Under the pieces are notes generated by a model that was not told the DNA's origin, searched no databases, and saw only the letters and a program-made list of their open reading frames with translations. The position numbers and the translations under genes are program-made. This document shows positions 2,957 to 10,665 of a stretch of 17,004 nucleotides of DNA, one piece after another. Source of the DNA: an uncultured Bacilli bacterium (GTDB taxonomy: Bacteria > Bacillota_I > Bacilli_A > RF39 > UBA660); assembly GCA_910578745.1 (NCBI GenBank), contig CAJTSN010000027.1, forward strand, positions 5,099 through 22,102, in the 5' to 3' direction. Position 1 is the first letter of the stretch, and every line of letters begins with the position of its first letter.

Positions 2957-4214
2957 ATGTATAATTTAAATTTTCGATTCGTGGTAAGGTAATAATCACT
3001 TGTGTCCCCTTTTCTATTTCTGACTCATAACGAATGGTGCCACCATGTCCCCTTATAATTTCTTTTGACAAATAAACACCTAATCCTGTCCCCGCTTTTT
3101 TTGTTGTAAAAAAAGGCTCACTCATCTTTTTTAAGTTTTCACTCGTAATTCCTATTCCAGAATCTTTAATTCGAATTTGAATTGTATCTTTTTTCTCTTC
3201 TGTACAAATCGTTAAAATTTTCTTTTCTCTCTGTTCCATAGATTCAATACTATTTTTAATCAAATTAATGATCACTTGATTTAATCGATTATAATCGGCC
3301 TCCATAAATACCTCCTCATCTGAGATATGCAAATCGGTTTTAATTTGCTTTTCCTTTAGAAGAGGACTTACACTATCAATTACATTTTCCAATAAATAAT
3401 TAATATCTAGTGTCTCTTTTTCAATTTTTATTTTACTAATCGATAAAAAATCTTGCAATAAAGTAAGCACTTTTTCAATTTCACTTTTTAAGATAGGAAT
3501 ATATTTCTTACTATGTTCCTTATTATCCATATCAAACATATCTAAATACCCTTTGCATACCGCAATCGGATTTTTGATTTCATGTGTAATTTTAAATAGA
3601 GAAGCTCTTAATTTTTTTTCTTCATCAAGTAGAGAAATTGCATTCGAATACAAAATCATATCTTCTGATTTTTTCAATATAAAAATAGTGAAAGTAATTA
3701 AAAAGACAAAAATTAAAAAAACGAAAAAGATCTCAATAAATTGAATTCTATTATCATATCCTATAGGTACTTTAAATAAAAAGTAACTGTAAGCAAAAAC
3801 AAATTTAGCTAAAACAAAGACAAAAGCATCCTTTGTATAATCACGTTTTCGATAAGACAACACTTTATACAGTGCGTAGCATCCTACACTATCTAGTAAA
3901 AGTAAAGCGATTTGTTCCTCAAAAAAATGTTTCATAAAAAGAATTTGAAAAACAGTAATCATCAAAAAAGAAAGTTCTCTTTTCTTCACATAGGCCAAAA
4001 TAAGAGGAACATTTAATGAGAAATAAAGAAGATAAGAATATTTGAGATTATAAATTTTAGTCATGAGATAAATCATAGTGAAAAGAGCTAAATCAAAGGA
4101 AATGTTTCTTCTTTCTTTATCTATATTTTTCATATAAATTTGATAAATCATCCAAATGGATAAGGGGAAAAGAATAAAAATCGTTTCTAATAGAATATTG
4201 TCAAATAATGTCAT
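2955..4214 (-). CDS. Membrane sensor histidine kinase (multi-TM N-terminus, HisKA and HATPase_c), with no response regulator in the window
   Basis: The H-box is ITHEIKNPIAV, the N-box is VIINLIKNSIES, the G-boxes are DSGIGI and GTGLGVYL, and about six hydrophobic helices sit at the N-terminus. I set the start at the ATG at 4214 (AGGTGA 4 nt upstream) rather than the ORF-track start at 4253. Confidence 0.85.
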   Translation of the reverse strand: MTLFDNILLETIFILFPLSIWMIYQIYMKNIDKERRNISFDLALFTMIYLMTKIYNLKYSYLLYFSLNVPLILAYVKKRELSFLMITVFQILFMKHFFEEQIALLLLDSVGCYALYKVLSYRKRDYTKDAFVFVLAKFVFAYSYFLFKVPIGYDNRIQFIEIFFVFLIFVFLITFTIFILKKSEDMILYSNAISLLDEEKKLRASLFKITHEIKNPIAVCKGYLDMFDMDNKEHSKKYIPILKSEIEKVLTLLQDFLSISKIKIEKETLDINYLLENVIDSVSPLLKEKQIKTDLHISDEEVFMEADYNRLNQVIINLIKNSIESMEQREKKILTICTEEKKDTIQIRIKDSGIGITSENLKKMSEPFFTTKKAGTGLGVYLSKEIIRGHGGTIRYESEIEKGTQVIITLPRIENLNYT

Positions 4215-4292
4215 AAAATCACCTATTCCCATTATAGGCATATACAATGTCAAATTTTGTCGAATTTTGTTTAAAAGAAAAAAGTGATACTA

Positions 4293-4761: not shown

Positions 4762-4794
4762 TTTTCAAAAAAAGATTTCGATTTTAAGCGAAAC
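4762..4794 (-). terminator. Weak intrinsic terminator after the metallopeptidase-VWA gene
   Basis: The minus strand reads GTTTCG-CTTAAAAT-CGAAAT followed by CTTTTTTTG. The stem is short (5-6 bp) and AT-rich, with a U-tract immediately after the stop at 4798. Confidence 0.35.
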
Positions 4795-4797
4795 CTA

Positions 4798-6276
4798 TTA
4801 CCTTTTTCTTTGTCCTACCTCATACTGATGTAATCTTGATAGTGCACTTTCATTTATATATATTACCTTTCCACCCACTGGATTTATTTTACAATTACCA
4901 AATACAATCCAGATTGCATCTATTTGCGTATTTGGCATATCTGCCCATCCATCCGTAAAAATCACCTTATTTTCCACTCTCCTAGTAAAAGCACCTACAG
5001 CTGCATTAAAATCAGTGCCTCCACCGCCATAAAAGGTTAAATTATCAATATCGGATTCATCTTTTATTTCTGTAAACCCATAGAATTTTGTATCAAAACA
5101 TCCTACCTTTACTTTCGAATTTTGCAATATATTTTTACATTCCCTTAAGAAATTTCTAAGAAGTATTTCATCAATAGAACCACTTGTATCCAACACAATT
5201 TCTGTTTCAGGTTTTGGCATTTCTTCTAGATAGGGTGTTACTACACCATCCTCAATTCCAGCGTTTTCATATGACCAATCGATAGCATAATTTACGGCTT
5301 CTTTTAACAATATTCTCCAATCAATTAAGGGTTCAGATATTCCAATAGATGTTATATTTCTTATATTCTCATTTGCATCGTTGCTATGGCCATGTGACTG
5401 ACTTGCTAATGCATTTTTAAGTTCTTCTAGTTGCTTCTTACGTTCAACCTTATTTTGTCTAAAGGCCTCTTTCTCTCCCAATTGTACTATTTTTTGAATT
5501 TCATCATACCTTATGTTTTCTGACTCCAATTCTGGCTCTCTATCTACTTCCTTTTTTGTTTCCTGTGACGATTCTTGTTTTTCCTCTAACCTGTCGTTTG
5601 CACTTTTCTCTTTAGAAGGATTTTCCTCTTCTTTACTTTTTCTCTCGGTTGCTTTTTTCCACATAGAATGTGTATCGTGTCCAACATCATGATATTCATT
5701 CGTATCTTCCCTAACATCTGATTGTGTCATTTTTTCAGATGTCTGATTTGGTTCTTTTTGACCATCCTGCTTTTGTTGATTCTCATTATTTGAGGAACTT
5801 TGTTCGAATTGATTTTCTCCCTGTTGTGTCTTATTTTCTGCATCCACATTTTTTTGATTTTCGCTTGAACTATTCTTTTCTTGTTTCTTTTTCTCCTCTA
5901 ATAGTATCTGATATAATTCTTCTGCGTCATAGTCAATTGCTCCTTGAATATCAACTCCTCCTTTTGACAAAGGTAGGCCATCGTGTTTTAAAAAAGCATT
6001 GATAACGGCATCCGTTGCCATATTCCATAAATCTGGGTCTTTTCCAACACTTCTCCATATATGATTAAAAGCAATATGACAGATTTCATGGGCAAGTATA
6101 AATACCTGTTCCATAATAGGAATAGAGGAAAAAAAGGTAGGATTATAGTATACAACCTCTCCATCCGTTCCTGCTGTTTCTAAAGACATTTCACTTTTAA
6201 ATTTACAATGAGCAACTACACTCCCAAAAAAAGGATACTTTACTAACACTTTATTTATAACTGTCTCTATATTCAT
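4798..6276 (-). CDS. Metallopeptidase-like (HExxH, DUF2201_N-type) plus VWA-like (DUF2201-type) protein with a long disordered linker
   Basis: The N-terminus reads PFFGSVV...TAGTDGEVVYYNPTFF...LAHEICHIAFNH...WNMATDAVINAF. The C-terminal VWA has an intact MIDAS-type set: DTSGS, GGGGTDF and FTDGWAD. I set the start at the ATG at 6276 (AGGAAA 8 nt upstream). The ORF-track start at 6321 has no RBS and overlaps the upstream gene. Confidence 0.8.
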   Translation of the reverse strand: MNIETVINKVLVKYPFFGSVVAHCKFKSEMSLETAGTDGEVVYYNPTFFSSIPIMEQVFILAHEICHIAFNHIWRSVGKDPDLWNMATDAVINAFLKHDGLPLSKGGVDIQGAIDYDAEELYQILLEEKKKQEKNSSSENQKNVDAENKTQQGENQFEQSSSNNENQQKQDGQKEPNQTSEKMTQSDVREDTNEYHDVGHDTHSMWKKATERKSKEEENPSKEKSANDRLEEKQESSQETKKEVDREPELESENIRYDEIQKIVQLGEKEAFRQNKVERKKQLEELKNALASQSHGHSNDANENIRNITSIGISEPLIDWRILLKEAVNYAIDWSYENAGIEDGVVTPYLEEMPKPETEIVLDTSGSIDEILLRNFLRECKNILQNSKVKVGCFDTKFYGFTEIKDESDIDNLTFYGGGGTDFNAAVGAFTRRVENKVIFTDGWADMPNTQIDAIWIVFGNCKINPVGGKVIYINESALSRLHQYEVGQRKR

Positions 6277-6286
6277 AGTATATTTC

Positions 6287-6688
6287 CTAAATTTGAGCAC
6301 ATAAGGAATATACTTCCTCATTCATTTTATGCATTCTTAAATCAGAACAAGTGGCAACAACAAAACAATTTTTAGGTAAATCAAAAGTACTCACTTTTTT
6401 ATATTTTAATATTTCCACAAATTTTGTTTGTTCTTCTAAAGCAATTTCATTAATATTTTCAATCACTAAAATCACAGGACCTAATTTACTTTTCTCTAGT
6501 AATGTTTTATACCATTCTGGAGGACAAAATTCTATATTCTCATAGTGTCCATTTAATTGAAGTCTATCTATATCTGCTTTTATAATAACCGCATTATCAA
6601 AAACAGTAGCAGGGATGTTTTGAATTAATAAAGGAGAGATGCCAGATTGCATATAATTTTCTAATAAACTTAATCTATCTTTATTCAT
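6287..6688 (-). CDS. Degenerate AAA-like protein with no P-loop, a paralog of the core of the upstream ATPase
   Basis: The 133-aa ORF has GGAGG 9 nt upstream, and its ATG overlaps the upstream stop (ATGA). It aligns by eye with the AAA core of the 6685-8295 product. PPEWYKTLLEK matches PPTWYSKVKEK, VILVIENINEI matches IHIIFFDELTNA, LPKNCFVVATCS matches IPSNARIVAAGN, and LLIQNIPAT occupies the place of FLHGRSSEGKS. Confidence 0.6.
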   Translation of the reverse strand: MNKDRLSLLENYMQSGISPLLIQNIPATVFDNAVIIKADIDRLQLNGHYENIEFCPPEWYKTLLEKSKLGPVILVIENINEIALEEQTKFVEILKYKKVSTFDLPKNCFVVATCSDLRMHKMNEEVYSLCAQI

Positions 6689-8295
6689 CGTCTTATTCCT
6701 CCTTGGGTATTCATTTCAGACATTTGTATTTCGAGGAGTCGCTCTAATCTGGATTCATCGCCATGTACCCACATCGATTCAAAAGCCGCTCTTGGCTCTG
6801 CGCCCACTCGTTTCATAAAATCTCTTACTATTTCAAAATGTTCATCATCAACAGAAGATAAACCAACAGCGGTTGCAAATTTCTGTGATACATCCATTTC
6901 GAAGTCCCATTCTGAGTAATTATGATGAATTACATCTTCAATACTTATAACTTGAAGTTTTGTAAATGCAACAAAATCTCTTGTTAACTCCTCTCCTATT
7001 AATGCACGAAGCATTTCTGGTTTTTTCGTCTTATAAAGCACTTTGGAAGCCATCTCCCATTTTCTTGGATCTGCATTTGGCTTATCTCCTGTATAAGGGG
7101 TTCTTAGTACATCATAACCACTATAGGATTTATAAGCCACATAAGCATAAATTGCTGGATGAATAAGGTTCTCTTTTTTTTCCTCTTTATAATCCACCCT
7201 CTCATATTTGTCTCTTGGCGTAGATGCCCATTTTAACCAACTATCTACGGTTGTTTGAATGTATACGTGTGCGAATCGATTAAATAAAGGCTCTGCCATT
7301 TGATTAGCGGCTAACGAGTCATTCAAATCATTCCCAGCGGCCACAATTCTTGCATTCGAAGGAATCTTCCATTTTCCATCTACTTCTCCATCTAACACAA
7401 TATTAAACGCCATTCCCTGAATAGAAGGAAGTGCATTTGTAAGTTCATCAAAAAATATGATATGGATTTTATTTGGTTCTTTTTCACATTTTTCCTTTAC
7501 TTTGCTATACCATGTTGGTGGCACATCGATCATTTCCCCTGTTTGTGCATTATATACACTTTTTCCATTTAAACTATTCGGTGTTGCATTTCTCATATAT
7601 ATAATTTCACAGTCTGGATCAAATTGTTTTACTCTTGCTGACTTACCCTCACTTGATCTACCATGTAGAAACACCGAAATGTTACTTTCTATAGCCCCTT
7701 TAATAATCTCTTCTTCCGATACATTCCCAAAATCAAAATGATAGGGATTTTCTTTTCGTAGTTGTTTTCGTTCATCTGAAATTTCAACTTGCTTTGTGTC
7801 CTTTTGTACATAGACTGTATCAGCCATTATTTCCTTTGCAAAACAAGTATCCATAAATTGTTTAATATCTGTTTTATCAAAGTTTCCATCATAATTCCTT
7901 TGATTTTTAAATTGAACTCCTGAAAATATAATTTTTTTACAAAGTGCAATATTCGTTCTTTCATCTACTAACCAAATAATTGGTTCAACTTCTACCCAAC
8001 ATTCACTTCCAAATTGAACCGATCTTCCATTGGATAGAAACTGACCATCACAGTTTTCATCAACAATAAAACGAATGTATTTTTTTCCATTATATTCATA
8101 TTCTACATGCTTTCTAGCTTTAAATTTTATATCTGTATCTCGATAGCTGACACAATCGGTTGTATAACTTTTTCCTGTTGTTTTTAAATTACCTCTTTTA
8201 TAGAATTCCTCTAATATACGTGCGTCATTATCACTTACTATAGTCTGAGGATATTCTCCATAATTAACTTCCTTAATTCCATTAGCGACTCTCAC
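6685..8295 (-). CDS. MoxR/AAA_5-like ATPase body of the DGR target. As an isolated ORF it has only a GTG start and no convincing RBS.
   Basis: Walker A is GRSSEGKS (7639-7662) and Walker B is IIFFDE (7444-7461). The sensor-1-like segment is RIVAAGND, followed by EPLFNRFAHVYI. Upstream of the AAA core lies a beta-rich segment (YGEYPQ...WVEVEPIIWLVDE). The frame is open and continuous upstream through the VR to the TGA at 8395-8397. Confidence 0.8.
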   Translation of the reverse strand: MRVANGIKEVNYGEYPQTIVSDNDARILEEFYKRGNLKTTGKSYTTDCVSYRDTDIKFKARKHVEYEYNGKKYIRFIVDENCDGQFLSNGRSVQFGSECWVEVEPIIWLVDERTNIALCKKIIFSGVQFKNQRNYDGNFDKTDIKQFMDTCFAKEIMADTVYVQKDTKQVEISDERKQLRKENPYHFDFGNVSEEEIIKGAIESNISVFLHGRSSEGKSARVKQFDPDCEIIYMRNATPNSLNGKSVYNAQTGEMIDVPPTWYSKVKEKCEKEPNKIHIIFFDELTNALPSIQGMAFNIVLDGEVDGKWKIPSNARIVAAGNDLNDSLAANQMAEPLFNRFAHVYIQTTVDSWLKWASTPRDKYERVDYKEEKKENLIHPAIYAYVAYKSYSGYDVLRTPYTGDKPNADPRKWEMASKVLYKTKKPEMLRALIGEELTRDFVAFTKLQVISIEDVIHHNYSEWDFEMDVSQKFATAVGLSSVDDEHFEIVRDFMKRVGAEPRAAFESMWVHGDESRLERLLEIQMSEMNTQGGIRR

Positions 8296-8339
8296 TCCGT
8301 TCGAGGAGATAGATGAGATTAATAAAGAATAAGGTAAAG

Positions 8340-8413
8340 CGGGACGAGCCCCAACAGAACGTCCCGTAACATGGGAGCAGTCCCTATTCCCATTTCAGCC
8401 AACGGCGCGCGCG
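8340..8413 (-). repeat. DGR variable repeat (VR)
   Basis: It aligns base for base with 9922-9995 (offset +1582). There are 13 mismatches, at 8357, 8358, 8363, 8364, 8373, 8375, 8376, 8377, 8382, 8383, 8396, 8399 and 8400. Every one lies opposite a plus-strand T of the TR, which is a coding-strand A. No mismatch occurs at the other 51 positions. Confidence 0.92.
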
Positions 8414-8622: not shown

Positions 8623-8674
8623 ATATATATCACCACTTTTATTTTAACATATTTTCCCATTATTTGACAATTTT

Positions 8675-9697
8675 TTATTTAAAAGGGAAAGTATCCATTT
8701 TTAGCCTTTCACTTTCTTGTGTATTCTTAATATGATTATAAAAAGCATTTTTTCGAATATATACATATTCATCATCAACGATTCCCTTATTATATAATTT
8801 GTTTACTGTTTTTAAATGTTTTCTCATTCGCTGTTTTGAAGTATACCTTAACTTCACAATGATTTTCCCTGTAGTTGTTAAAATATGACGATACCCTAAA
8901 AAATCGACTCCATTTTTAACCATTCCTATTTGTGTCTTATCATTTAATTCTAAATTCAATACATTTTTACATAATTTTTCGATTTCCTGTTTACATAAAG
9001 CTAAATATTTTTTATCTCTATGAGGTAATATCATATCATCCATATAACGTACATATCCACGAATTCTCAAACTTTCTTTTATAAAGTGATCCACTTTATT
9101 TAAATATAAAAGAGCAAACCACTGACTTGATTGATTTCCTAAAGGCAAACCCACACTTGCATGATCTGGTTGTTCCTGAATCAATTTCCTTATCATCCAC
9201 ATCTCATCCTCTGAAAAATGGATTTCTTCTAAAAGGTGAATCAATATATCATGATTTATACTGGGAAAATACTTACGTATATCACATTTTAAAAAATATA
9301 TATTATTATTATTTTCTCCTCTATATTCTTTTCTTAAAAAAGCATGCAATCTTTCTATAGCAAAATTTGTTCCCTTTCCTTTTCGACATGCACAATTGTC
9401 ATATACTAATCTTTTATCTATTTTAGGTTTTAAACAAGCATCACAAAAACATCGAATGACCACTCGATCTTTAAAGGGAAGCGCTTCTATTAATCGTTCT
9501 TTAGGTTCATAAACATAAAATTTTTTATATTTTCCTAATGTATACTTTTTTGTAACCAATTCTTTATGTAGAGTATTTAAATTAAGCGCTAAAGCGGTTT
9601 CGAATCGAATGACCTCTCCCTTATGTTGCTTAGACATCCTACAATTTTTATAAGCTTCATTCAAATTTTCAAAAGTAAAAATTTCATCCAAATGCAT
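8675..9697 (-). CDS. DGR-type reverse transcriptase
   Basis: RT motifs are present: EPKERLIEALPFKDRVV, FLKCDIRKYFPSI, the catalytic YVRYMDDMIL, and FLGYR. Motif 4 reads LPLGNQSSQWFA, the 'GxxxSQ' form typical of DGR RTs rather than the 'QGxxxSP' form of group II intron and retron RTs. The size is 340 aa and there is no X/En or extra domain. I set the start at the ATG at 9697 (GGAGG 5 nt upstream) rather than 9736. Confidence 0.9.
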   Translation of the reverse strand: MHLDEIFTFENLNEAYKNCRMSKQHKGEVIRFETALALNLNTLHKELVTKKYTLGKYKKFYVYEPKERLIEALPFKDRVVIRCFCDACLKPKIDKRLVYDNCACRKGKGTNFAIERLHAFLRKEYRGENNNNIYFLKCDIRKYFPSINHDILIHLLEEIHFSEDEMWMIRKLIQEQPDHASVGLPLGNQSSQWFALLYLNKVDHFIKESLRIRGYVRYMDDMILPHRDKKYLALCKQEIEKLCKNVLNLELNDKTQIGMVKNGVDFLGYRHILTTTGKIIVKLRYTSKQRMRKHLKTVNKLYNKGIVDDEYVYIRKNAFYNHIKNTQESERLKMDTFPFK

Positions 9698-9921
9698 ACT
9701 TTCCTCCAAAAAATAAACACCCCCTATAACGCACAAAGAGTCATCTTACTCATTGCTTGTGTGAGTGTTCCTATATTTTTCCATCGCATCTTTGAAAATA
9801 CATCTTTTAGCGATTAGAAAAGAAGAAAATTCCTTCACCTTACAATACGGATATATTTTTCTTAAAATATATTTCTCTGATTTGTTTTCTGAATTTTATA
9901 AAAATTCCTTCAAAAGTGAAT
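9698..9921 (-). ncRNA. TR-to-RT spacer, probably part of the non-coding DGR template RNA
   Basis: It has no credible ORF on the minus strand. It lies between the TR and the RT start, where DGR spacer RNA is located in characterised elements. Several AT-rich hairpins are visible, for example GAAUUUU-UAU-AAAAUUC and AUCGC...GCGAU. Confidence 0.45.
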
Positions 9922-9995
9922 CGGGACGAGCCCCAACATTACGTTTCGTAACATTGTTTCAGTTTCTATTCCCATTTTAGTTAACGGCGCGCGCG
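9922..9995 (-). repeat. DGR template repeat (TR)
   Basis: It is a non-coding copy of the VR with 23 coding-strand adenines. In the target frame it reads A R A V N * N G N R N * N N V T K R N V G A R P and is rich in AAC/AAT codons. It is bounded by CGCGCGCGCC at the 5' end and GGGGCTCGTCCC at the 3' end. Confidence 0.92.
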
Positions 9996-10071: not shown

Positions 10072-10665
10072 CTAATTTCTTTTTCTCCATCTTTCATCAT
10101 CGCTTTTCTTCCAAGCAATAACTAAATTAATTGTTTCTGCTAATTGCATAGAGATTTGATTATATTGCTTCTTTAAAATACAACCTGAACTCTCAGCAAC
10201 CATTGCTATATATCCAAGCAATTTCAATTTCACAATCGCTTCTTTTTGATAATGTTCCCTTTTTACTTTGTTTGAAGCAGAGTCCATTCGAATAAAATTT
10301 GCTTCTAATAAACACTCTATAGTATCTAAACAGTAATTCTGCATCCGATTTACAAATACACCTCTAAATTTCTTTGGAGATTTTTCTGTAACTGTAATTA
10401 CATAAGCACACAACTTTTTTGCTACTGTAATAACAATTAAATCATTTGCATTAGAAGGAATTTTATCAATTATTTTTAACTCTTCCTCTTCTACTTTCAT
10501 TTGTTCTCTCATCTTTTTTTGATTAAACTTTTCATGCGTAGCAACAGCGATTCCTTTTTTTGTTGCAATAACATCTTCAATTTCATTGGCTGTTCTTTCT
10601 ACAATCTCTATTTTTTTAGGAATTTTTAAATTATTATCACGACTGACTTGCAACACATGTATCAC
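10072..10665 (-). CDS. avd: Avd-like accessory variability determinant (four-helix-bundle family). The start is uncertain.
   Basis: The C-terminal segment of about 130 aa (KKFRGVFVNRM...LLEANFIR...KREHYQKEAIVKLKLLGYIAMVAES..ILKKQYNQIS..LAETINLVIAWKKS) fits the Avd/four-helix-bundle pattern. The gene sits immediately upstream of the TR. The ORF-track start is a GTG without a well-spaced RBS. Internal ATGs (codons 52 and 56) would give a more typical size of about 140 aa. Confidence 0.75.
   Translation of the reverse strand: MIHVLQVSRDNNLKIPKKIEIVERTANEIEDVIATKKGIAVATHEKFNQKKMREQMKVEEEELKIIDKIPSNANDLIVITVAKKLCAYVITVTEKSPKKFRGVFVNRMQNYCLDTIECLLEANFIRMDSASNKVKREHYQKEAIVKLKLLGYIAMVAESSGCILKKQYNQISMQLAETINLVIAWKKSDDERWRKRN

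Follow-up and report, generated by a model that had tools for sequence, protein, structure and literature searches.

The DNA considered here (the window, 17,004 nucleotides) comes from an uncultured Bacilli bacterium (GTDB lineage Bacteria; Bacillota_I; Bacilli_A; RF39; UBA660; GenBank assembly GCA_910578745.1, contig CAJTSN010000027.1, positions 5,099 to 22,102 of the forward strand) and carries a diversity-generating retroelement (DGR), with its reverse transcriptase (RT), its template repeat (TR) and, in an adjacent target gene, its variable repeat (VR). The target gene is interrupted by a TGA at codon 76, and we consider it very probable that this nonsense codon was written by the DGR itself and that the gene stands here as an OFF allele. 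All positions are window coordinates; the target and the DGR genes lie on the minus strand, so that 8395-8397 reads TCA on the plus strand and TGA on the coding strand. Codons are numbered in the 645-codon target frame, and L-numbers denote contigs or loci and P-numbers proteins, as labelled in the analysis. Along the minus strand the order is Avd-like gene, TR, RT, target with VR, a gene for a 133-aa protein, and a DUF2201 metallopeptidase/von Willebrand factor A (VWA) gene. The features that bear directly on the stop are the following.

10072..10665, minus strand: Avd-like accessory gene, 197 aa, with an Avd-like C-terminal half (bAvd and DivGenRetAVD matches below cut-off; position conserved)
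9913..9995, minus strand: TR, intergenic, 3' of the Avd-like gene and 5' of the RT (direct repeat of the VR, 83 nt)
9977..9979, minus strand: TR codon 76, TAA, template of the codon-76 stop (TR/VR alignment)
9959..9961, minus strand: TR codon 82, TGA, second in-frame stop of the template (TR/VR alignment)
8675..9736, minus strand: DGR-type RT, 353 aa from TTG or 340 aa from ATG 9697 (Pfam RVT_1, E=6e-17)
9023..9025, minus strand: private Leu-to-Pro change in the RT (CTT to CCT; base 9024), four residues past YMDD (contig comparison)
8395..8622, minus strand: target part 1, 75 codons and TGA, N-terminal part of the DUF6273/C-lectin-like variable domain (translation)
8331..8413, minus strand: VR (13 adenine-specific differences from the TR)
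8395..8397, minus strand: in-frame TGA, codon 76 (translation and TR/VR alignment)
8377..8379, minus strand: VR codon 82, TGC (Cys), rescued from the template TGA (TR/VR alignment)
8340..8355, minus strand: GC-rich 3' core common to VR and TR, GTTGGGGCTCGTCCCG, a boundary resembling the initiation of mutagenic homing sites IMH/IMH* (two exact copies in the window)
6685..8394, minus strand: target part 2, 569 in-frame codons, with a beta-rich middle domain, a MoxR-like AAA+ ATPase and a helical C-terminus

The template repeat and the codon-76 stop

Translated from 8622 to 6685, the target frame amounts to 645 sense codons and a terminal stop once its sole internal stop, the TGA at 8397-8395, is read through. 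The VR (8413-8331) and the TR (9995-9913) are direct repeats of 83 nt, offset from each other by 1582 nt, and between 8400 and 8357 all 13 of their 13 differences replace a TR adenine by another base. The earliest differences at non-adenine template positions, 8336 and 8333, fall at the end of the repeat, where the GC-rich core is followed by the VR-specific CTTTACC as opposed to ATTCACT in the TR. One A-to-C difference at 8339 (TR GAT, VR GCT) is constant in all strains and species examined and thus marks the 3' boundary of the repeat. The 16-nt core itself occurs exactly twice in the window, against zero copies expected by chance, and a repeat search of the window returned no further VR for this TR. 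At codon 76 the TR reads TAA and the VR TGA, a single A-to-G change at the middle adenine (9978/8396), and the template holds a second in-frame stop, TGA at codon 82, where the VR of the window has TGC. Among the adenine-containing TR codons within 75-89, 7 of 13 are AAY (Y denoting a pyrimidine). Another reading frame also stays open across the VR, yet it shows no AAY pattern and closes just past the VR; the AAY-rich frame is that of the open reading frame (ORF). The terminator scan flagged hairpin potential in the core, with loop CTCG, at 8340-8353 (5-bp stem, VR) and 9922-9937 (7 bp, TR), which may be relevant to target recognition; the Bordetella phage BPP-1 has a hairpin adjoining its IMH.

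The RT carries the motifs LGNQSSQ (9142-9122) and YMDD (9046-9035), read from the sequence. The Avd-like gene scores below the family cut-offs (Pfam bAvd, E=4e-5, 24.5 bits vs 40; NCBIfam DivGenRetAVD, E=1.8e-6, 28 bits vs 80) and is conserved 5' of the TR in related cassettes. With the RT motifs, the adenine-restricted TR/VR mismatches and, as described below, VR diversity alongside an invariant TR among close strains, the element is a DGR by its defining features, departing from the usual pattern in its disregard of stop avoidance and in the placement of its VR away from the C-terminus. The initial annotation had called the TGA the only interruption of the 645-codon frame, derived it by one A-to-G change from a TAA template, attributed it to adenine mutagenesis and counted 13 sense outcomes at this codon. 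Translation and alignment agree with each of these statements: the 13 sense codons encode F, L, S, Y, C or W, and the confinement of the 13 core differences to TR adenines supports the mutagenic origin of the stop. The frame beyond the stop, which the same annotation had described as open, indeed continues for 569 in-frame codons and carries no other lesion in any allele.

In the mechanism that we propose, the RT would copy the TR with misincorporation opposite adenines, and the cDNA would overwrite the VR in the adjacent target. Codon 76 would then stay a stop unless rewritten to one of the 13 sense codons, and codon 82 would stay a stop unless its adenine is altered, giving W or C. In this genome codon 82 would have been rescued as TGC and codon 76 converted to TGA, such that translation would end after 75 residues and most likely no more of the 645-residue protein is produced, given the stop and the lack of a credible internal start. 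Since the 133-aa gene overlaps the stop codon of the target, that gene and the metallopeptidase/VWA gene may be down-regulated as well, through polarity. Because the VR lies at the 5' end of the gene, each retrohoming event would re-diversify the sensor and re-draw the ON/OFF state together, and natural populations are mixes of ON and OFF alleles. We infer the reversion rates, the loss of protein in OFF alleles, the downstream polarity and the roles of the domains from sequence.

A stop codon has this consequence only if it is read as one. The low GC content of the genome (~31%) and the labels 'Tenericutes' or 'Mollicutes' attached to some relatives could suggest that TGA is decoded here, by genetic code 4 or 25, as selenocysteine or through a suppressor, leaving the protein intact. 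However, TGG accounts for all 46 Trp codons in the 17 main ORFs of the window, no in-frame TGA occurs in the long conserved ORFs (RNase J, 579 aa; FtsY, 330 aa; FtsW, 382 aa; the RT), and several ORFs terminate in TGA. Sister alleles, moreover, carry TAA or TAG at the same codon, and Rfam and tRNA scans of the window were empty, leaving it with no tRNA gene. Judged by this codon usage, TGA is a genuine stop under the standard genetic code, and we give its decoding hardly any credence.

A second way of sparing most of the protein would be to translate the ATPase part from an internal start, in which case the stop would merely uncouple the sensor. Gene callers do annotate a 536-aa ORF from GTG 8295, the earliest in-frame start past the stop, and ATG 7827 is preceded by AAGGA 4 nt upstream. 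Against this, GTG 8295 has no Shine-Dalgarno sequence at usable spacing, as expected from the earlier remark that the ATPase ORF lacks an ATG or ribosome-binding site of its own near its start; the nearest in-frame ATGs, 7854 and 7827, correspond to codons 257 and 266, at which Met is unconserved in homologues; and every homologue whose VR is intact is one fused protein. Independent initiation of the ATPase at 8295, which the initial annotation had named as what would make the fusion irrelevant, thus found no evidence in its favour, more than 100 homologues of ~645 aa being contiguous over both halves. We regard translation of the ATPase part on its own as unlikely.

ON and OFF alleles within one species

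Neighbour look-ups returned many mouse-gut contigs of the same species whose identity to the window is at least 99.6%. They show 0-2 mismatches to it over 3.2-9.4 kb outside the VR and 10-17 within the 83 nt of the VR, giving more than 20 distinct VR alleles on a near-identical backbone. The TR, both stops included, is invariant in all same-species contigs that span both codons, from more than 10 mouse-gut samples; the sole variant is one A-to-G change in L006/L007, a slightly divergent strain. In L006, from that strain (98.3% identity to the window; TR variant ACG GAA), the RT at 4969-5992 is called as two ORFs of 91 and 262 aa, which suggests a frameshift. The clearest single comparison is with P0001 (DNA in L001 and L002), a 99% identical, uninterrupted 645-aa ON allele: its gene differs from that of the window at 17 positions, all within nucleotides 223-266 of the gene, that is, in the VR, and the flanking DNA has 0 mismatches in 1913 nt downstream and 1 in 880 nt upstream.

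To count the two states, we used an unbiased set of contigs found through their neighbours (the Avd-like protein and the 133-aa protein) and hence blind to the state of the VR. This set holds 7 OFF and 4 ON distinct alleles, listed here with codons 76/82.

OFF, L004: TAA/TGA, with a 1-nt deletion
OFF, L005: TCT/TGA
OFF, L011: TAT/TGA
OFF, L014: TAG/TGT, RT and target N-terminus deleted
OFF, L016: TGC/TGA
OFF, L017: TGA/TGC
OFF, L020: TAA/TGA
ON, L015: TGG/TGT
ON, L018: TGG at codon 76, 3-nt VR deletion, 644 aa
ON, L019: GCG/TGG
ON, L021: TAT/TGT

Targeted look-ups added five OFF entries (L102, L104, L106, L108 and L109, of which L106 is the L017 allele from a second sample) and seven ON alleles (P0124, P0126, P0129, P0131, P0133, P0134 and L001). 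Across sister strains codon 76 is TGG, TAT, TCT, TGC, GGG, GCG, TAA, TAG or TGA, and codon 82 is a stop (TGA) in L004, L005, L011, L016, L020 and L104. The OFF state is thus reached through a stop at codon 76, at codon 82 or at both, or through indels in the VR, the 1-nt deletions providing a second route by frameshift. Small VR indels occur near A-runs: 1-nt deletions in L004/L105, L102/L107 and L065 (the last from another species), the 3-nt deletion in L018, and P0129, which is one codon shorter; they suggest slippage in cDNA synthesis or integration. A larger rearrangement, a precise collapse of TR and VR, is found in L014 (= L101; 2776-2849) and, independently, in a metagenome-assembled genome of another species, L035 (~3909-4001). 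There one hybrid repeat comes after the Avd-like gene and leads directly into the remaining target sequence, so that the RT and target codons 1-70 are missing (1582-bp deletion); this is either a true TR-VR recombination or a recurrent assembly artefact.

Independent counts point the same way. The product of the 536-aa ORF is indexed in 54 collection blocks vs 107 for the neighbouring 133-aa protein, and in contigs of at least 10 kb in 39 blocks vs 54; in the 90% cluster, 536-aa forms occur on 43 contigs, and the ten full-length forms among the matches listed on ~17. OFF is at least as common as ON in the species of the window. Scans of Joint Genome Institute (JGI) metagenomes with a degenerate VR pattern and with the VR-specific 3' flank returned no further alleles.

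The stop could in principle be an artefact of assembly or sequencing, for instance of TR reads threaded into the VR where the population is heterogeneous; many contigs do break at or near the TR or VR, and some assembled VRs are very similar to the TR (L020, L109). But the window codon is TGA, not the template TAA, and the VR codons on either side carry combinations of mutations particular to each allele; further, the same OFF alleles recur across independent samples and assemblers (L017 = L106, L102 = L107, L004 = L105). Sequencing reads of 100-150 nt also cover the whole 83-nt VR. An artefact therefore strikes us as very improbable.

The same data bear on whether the target is a fixed pseudogene or the DGR is in decay. 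Some observations would fit decay: the RT of the window has a private Leu-to-Pro change near the active site, the RT, VR or N-terminus has been lost in L014, L035 and L026, and ~10 loci hold remnants of an RT. At the level of the species, however, this reading is contradicted, since the stop is not fixed but one state among the more than 20 VR alleles, the 569 downstream codons are without other lesion in any allele, VR and TR differ at adenines only, and the ratio of nonsynonymous to synonymous divergence (dN/dS, below) is 0.15. We consider decay improbable. Fixation of the TGA in all strains, which the initial annotation had set out as the finding that would speak for a pseudogene, is likewise not what is seen, as ON alleles and other stops share the near-identical backbone. 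Its description of the gene as a phase-variable ON/OFF allele holds insofar as ON and OFF coexist among near-identical genomes; that the switching is an adaptive trait is a possible interpretation which we hold tentatively. Its expectation that another round of retrohoming could reopen the frame is supported for the species and is less assured for the lineage of the window, because of the change in its RT. Reversible switching is supported indirectly by the constancy of the TR, by a downstream ORF that is intact in every OFF allele and by the low dN/dS.

How often a rewrite should leave the gene ON can be estimated from the mutation spectrum. In ten ungapped same-species alleles, with the three stop-codon adenines left out (20 adenines each), 101 of 200 TR adenines were substituted (0.505), 62 to G, 23 to T and 16 to C, and changes at non-adenine VR positions numbered 2. 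Under this spectrum codon 76 would stay a stop with probability 0.55 and codon 82 with probability 0.495. Since the TR holds two stops and not one, only ~23-30% of rewrites are expected to be ON (0.23 with the observed spectrum, corresponding to ~77% OFF, and 0.30 with a uniform one). The 4 ON alleles observed among 10 or 11 in the unbiased set are not significantly above this expectation (P ~0.17-0.22), which gives little sign that OFF alleles have been purged in this species.

The first base of codon 76 (8397), the T of the TAA template, is a hotspot for non-adenine substitution in several ON alleles. It has changed to G in L001, L019 and P0165, to A in L028 and to C in L037; in every such case for which DNA is available the adjoining adenine is also mutated, and these are the only non-adenine VR changes among the ten ungapped same-species alleles. 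Either misincorporation at the U after a mismatched A-run or selection for the ON state may be the cause.

Several points weigh against the interpretation of the stop as a DGR-written and switchable OFF state. The changes of the codon-76 T just described go beyond simple adenine mutagenesis. All ON/OFF states were read from assemblies, which give one consensus per sample. In OFF alleles there may be low-level reinitiation, for example at ATG 7827. The Leu-to-Pro change of the RT occurs only in the window and in the identical contig L003, with Leu at this position in 14 other same-species contigs and L, V or I in other species, and may impair the RT and lock the present OFF allele in place. Finally, in another species with the same two TR stops (L022/P0005), 12 of the 15 cluster members listed are full length; with ON predominant there, the tolerance of OFF alleles differs between species.

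Template stops in related species

A scan with one genome per species returned 79 related loci, and TR and VR were paired in those that bear a DGR. A module of three genes (target, 133-aa gene and DUF2201 gene) is present in most of the 79, with Avd and RT in ~22 and the RT remnants mentioned above in ~10 more. On this distribution the DGR is an element that has been lost repeatedly from a conserved three-gene module. Within the close clade, 12 of 14 cassettes have an in-frame TR stop at codon 76, 82 or 84, the exceptions being L049 and L026.

TR codon 76, TAA: window, L022, L028, L037, L042, L051, L065, L097
TR codon 76, TAG: L040
TR codon 76, AAA or AAT: L026, L029, L033, L041
TR codon 82, TGA: window, L022
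TR codon 82, TAA: L029, L033, L051
TR codon 82, TGG: L026, L028, L037, L065
TR codon 82, AAC: L040, L042, L049, L097
TR codon 84, TAA: L041

In a more distant clade TR stops are mostly absent, with the exception of L095 (TAA at codon 75). The representative genomes L033, L041, L042 and L051 are themselves OFF through stops at codons 76, 82 or 84, and L065 is OFF through its 1-nt VR deletion. In L026 (~4210-4230) Avd, a stop-free TR and the RT are kept and the VR of the target has been lost entirely by an in-frame deletion (…DGDNDAR|SSNGVRG…), so that the DGR there has no site to write into. Tandem or nearby paralogues of the target occur in L046, L049, L095/L098 and L081/L100, the copies in L046 and in L095/L098 being identical over 270 nt that include the VR region.

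For codons 98-645 we obtained a dN/dS of 0.15 at dS 0.9-1.4, and 0.08-0.11 for the ATPase part. The target downstream of the VR is thus under long-term purifying selection, and OFF states are not permanent on evolutionary time scales. With the gene conserved and template-encoded stops frequent, the ON state must be regained regularly.

Are the stops then there for a purpose? One could speculate that they are a selected and conserved design, a device combining phase variation with diversification that would hedge against a costly or self-reactive sensor, in which case an unmutated copy, identical to the template, could never be expressed. We put this forward tentatively, as the sort of explanation that may well turn out wrong. 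The same mechanism would operate if the stops were instead a non-adaptive cost and the OFF alleles tolerated waste, an account that we find quite plausible while stopping just short of calling it probable. TAA, TAG and TGA are the only codons with T in first position that reach Trp (TGG) by adenine change, and where W, C or aromatic residues are to be sampled at a position with a fixed T the template codon is necessarily a stop, which favours the stops as a by-product. Stop templates restrict sampling to the aromatic- and Cys-rich set F, L, S, Y, C and W, and the sense outcomes actually seen are Y, S, F, W, C and L at codon 76 and W or C at codon 82. Full-length homologues provide 73 distinct VRs, of which 45 have W and 13 have C at position 82; going by the codons, this is the signature of a TGA or TGG template. 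Across species TR codon 82 is TGG, TGA, TAA or AAC, resembling drift between a fixed Trp and variable states. Nor did we find any statistical sign that cassettes always keep at least one stop, at codon 76 or 82, as the two behave indistinguishably from independence (2 stop-free among 14 cassettes vs ~2.9 expected). In the L022 species, ON lies well above the mutational expectation, implying that OFF alleles are purged there.

Two observations sit less well with the stops being mere waste. In the window species OFF is near the mutational expectation (7/11 in the unbiased set, 50-72% by contig and block counts), so selection against OFF would be weak in it. Moreover, one TR change, TAA to TAY, would remove the risk of a stop without giving up F, S, Y or C; even so, 9 lineages have retained TAA or TAG at dS ~1.

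The target module and its relation to known systems

The remaining features of the module, and two motifs of the target, are as follows.

8641..8670, minus strand: promoter-like site 5' of the target, TTGTCA-18-TAAAAT with an extended TG (consensus match only)
7662-7639 and 7461-7444, minus strand: Walker A and Walker B, within target part 2
6287..6688, minus strand: 133-aa gene, no family assigned; 4-nt overlap with the target stop codon
4798..6321, minus strand: putative metallopeptidase and VWA-like protein (DUF2201_N and DUF2201; Pfam E=1.8e-31 and 5e-13), likely partner of the ATPase
4773..4796, minus strand: terminator-like hairpin and T-run at the end of the module (consensus match only)

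The target ATG is preceded by a Shine-Dalgarno sequence, GGTGAT, 6 nt upstream. A search with the read-through protein returned the homologues of ~645 aa referred to above at 100% coverage, and judged by these the fused protein is the normal form. Its N-terminal domain comprises ~100 residues; 5 of 32 homologues match DUF6273 there, and the window protein itself has no Pfam match. In phage receptor-binding proteins DUF6273 is reported to be a C-lectin-like domain that DGRs target (PMC10743442). The ATPase occupies approximately residues 300-450, with Walker A (GRSSEGKS) at residue 321 and Walker B (IIFFDE) at residue 388. Foldseek on the AAA+ region retrieved NorQ (9qhg_E, E=7.6e-7), RavA (3nbx) and CHU_0153 (2r44), as well as sigma-54 activators and MCM; Pfam matches to AAA_5 and Sigma54_activat are weak, and a sequence-profile search of solved structures gave no matches. 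An AlphaFold model of the ON allele has a mean predicted local distance difference test (pLDDT) score of 58.9, with 50-60 in the N-terminal domain and moderate values in the AAA+ region, and was not used to place codons 76 and 82. Taken together, the target would join a DUF6273/C-lectin-like sensor to a MoxR-like AAA+ ATPase, and may sense a ligand inside the cell.

Two genes past the target, and kept in most of the 79 loci, lies the gene with DUF2201_N and the VWA-like DUF2201. MoxR ATPases commonly act together with a VWA protein, as NorQ does with NorD, a pair that figures among the Foldseek matches, and the product of this gene is the likely partner of the ATPase. The 133-aa gene is kept beside the target in most of the loci as well; its product matches no Pfam, NCBIfam or PADLOC model, the module contains no VMAP-like gene, and PADLOC found no defence system in the locus, apart from generic RT models. 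Elsewhere in the window, among the housekeeping genes FtsW, YceD and L32, 12156-13787 (minus strand) encodes a 543-aa protein with an N-terminal prepilin-type methylation motif (N_methyl), otherwise unannotated.

Compared with canonical DGRs (Mtd of BPP-1, Treponema TvpA, Legionella LdtA), the element shares an RT with GxxxSQ and YMDD, an Avd-like gene, adenine-restricted TR/VR differences, a GC-rich 3' boundary with a VR-specific tail, a putative C-lectin-like variable domain and AAY-rich TR codons. It differs in that its TR holds in-frame nonsense codons made partly of adenines, that its target lies downstream of the RT, and that its VR falls in the N-terminal domain of a 645-aa cytoplasmic protein, where a stop removes almost all of the protein; the VR is usually at the extreme C-terminus of the target (PMC8144416). 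The placement of TR adenines is held to avoid nonsense codons (10.1101/2023.09.22.558884; 10.1101/2024.11.15.621889; PMC12875486; PMC4372165). This property, commonly stated though no formal criterion of a DGR, is absent from the present TR at codons 76 and 82 and likewise from the 12 of 14 related TRs. Two large DGR surveys make no mention of stops in TRs or VRs (PMC8144416, PMC11661182). Our literature search for stops, nonsense codons or phase variation in DGRs found only statements of stop avoidance and an engineered reporter, and nothing that links DGRs to ON/OFF switching of their targets, although an earlier description of either may exist elsewhere. In that reporter, which scores repair of kanR, the adenines of stops in the TR (TAATAA) are mutagenised and sense variants recovered, as proposed here; it is, however, artificial and selected with antibiotic, unlike the natural TR stops, which are conserved across species and whose unselected OFF products persist (PMC12875486).

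The module also resembles other systems in part. The phage tentaclins and other DUF6273 targets of DGRs have the VR in an N-terminal DUF6273 C-lectin-like domain too, but the tentaclins are phage receptor-binding proteins with Ig-like domains, not a chromosomal, cytoplasmic AAA+ fusion (PMC10743442). DGR-diversified MoxR/vWA 'ternary conflict systems', and C-lectin (CLec)-AAA ATPase targets in the candidate phyla radiation (CPR) and DPANN, were described by Kaur et al. 2020 and Paul et al. 2017, as related by Dore et al. (10.1101/2023.09.22.558884 / PMC10907252). As far as that account goes, they likewise join a DGR-diversified C-lectin-type sensor with a MoxR-like AAA+ ATPase and a vWA protein, and are proposed to sense intracellular antigens. 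Measured against the same account, the present module has its variable domain fused N-terminally to the ATPase itself, a vWA partner with a DUF2201_N metallopeptidase domain, stops in its TR, and small-genome gut Bacilli instead of multicellular bacteria as hosts; no VMAP, STAND or recognised effector domain, and no PADLOC defence-system match, was found in it. Classical phase variation, through invertible promoters or through slipped-strand mispairing in simple repeats close to the 5' end of a reading frame, provides the nearest parallel in outcome: a heritable, stochastic ON/OFF state brought about by early termination, with both states coexisting in otherwise clonal populations. Here, by contrast, the route would be templated reverse transcription with adenine mutagenesis, not slippage or inversion, and the binding surface would change at each switch.

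DGRs have been described as diversifying their targets without the risk of truncation, owing to AAY codons, whereas this clade of gut bacteria keeps stops in its templates, and in at least one of its species most natural target alleles are switched off. If this is confirmed at the level of reads or cultures, ON/OFF switching would join the known outputs of DGRs, and in-frame, adenine-built TR stops would provide a simple search signature for cases that today's pipelines for DGR detection and gene calling would mistake for pseudogenes or split genes. It would also open a way to study what DGR-linked MoxR/VWA sensor modules cost and do.

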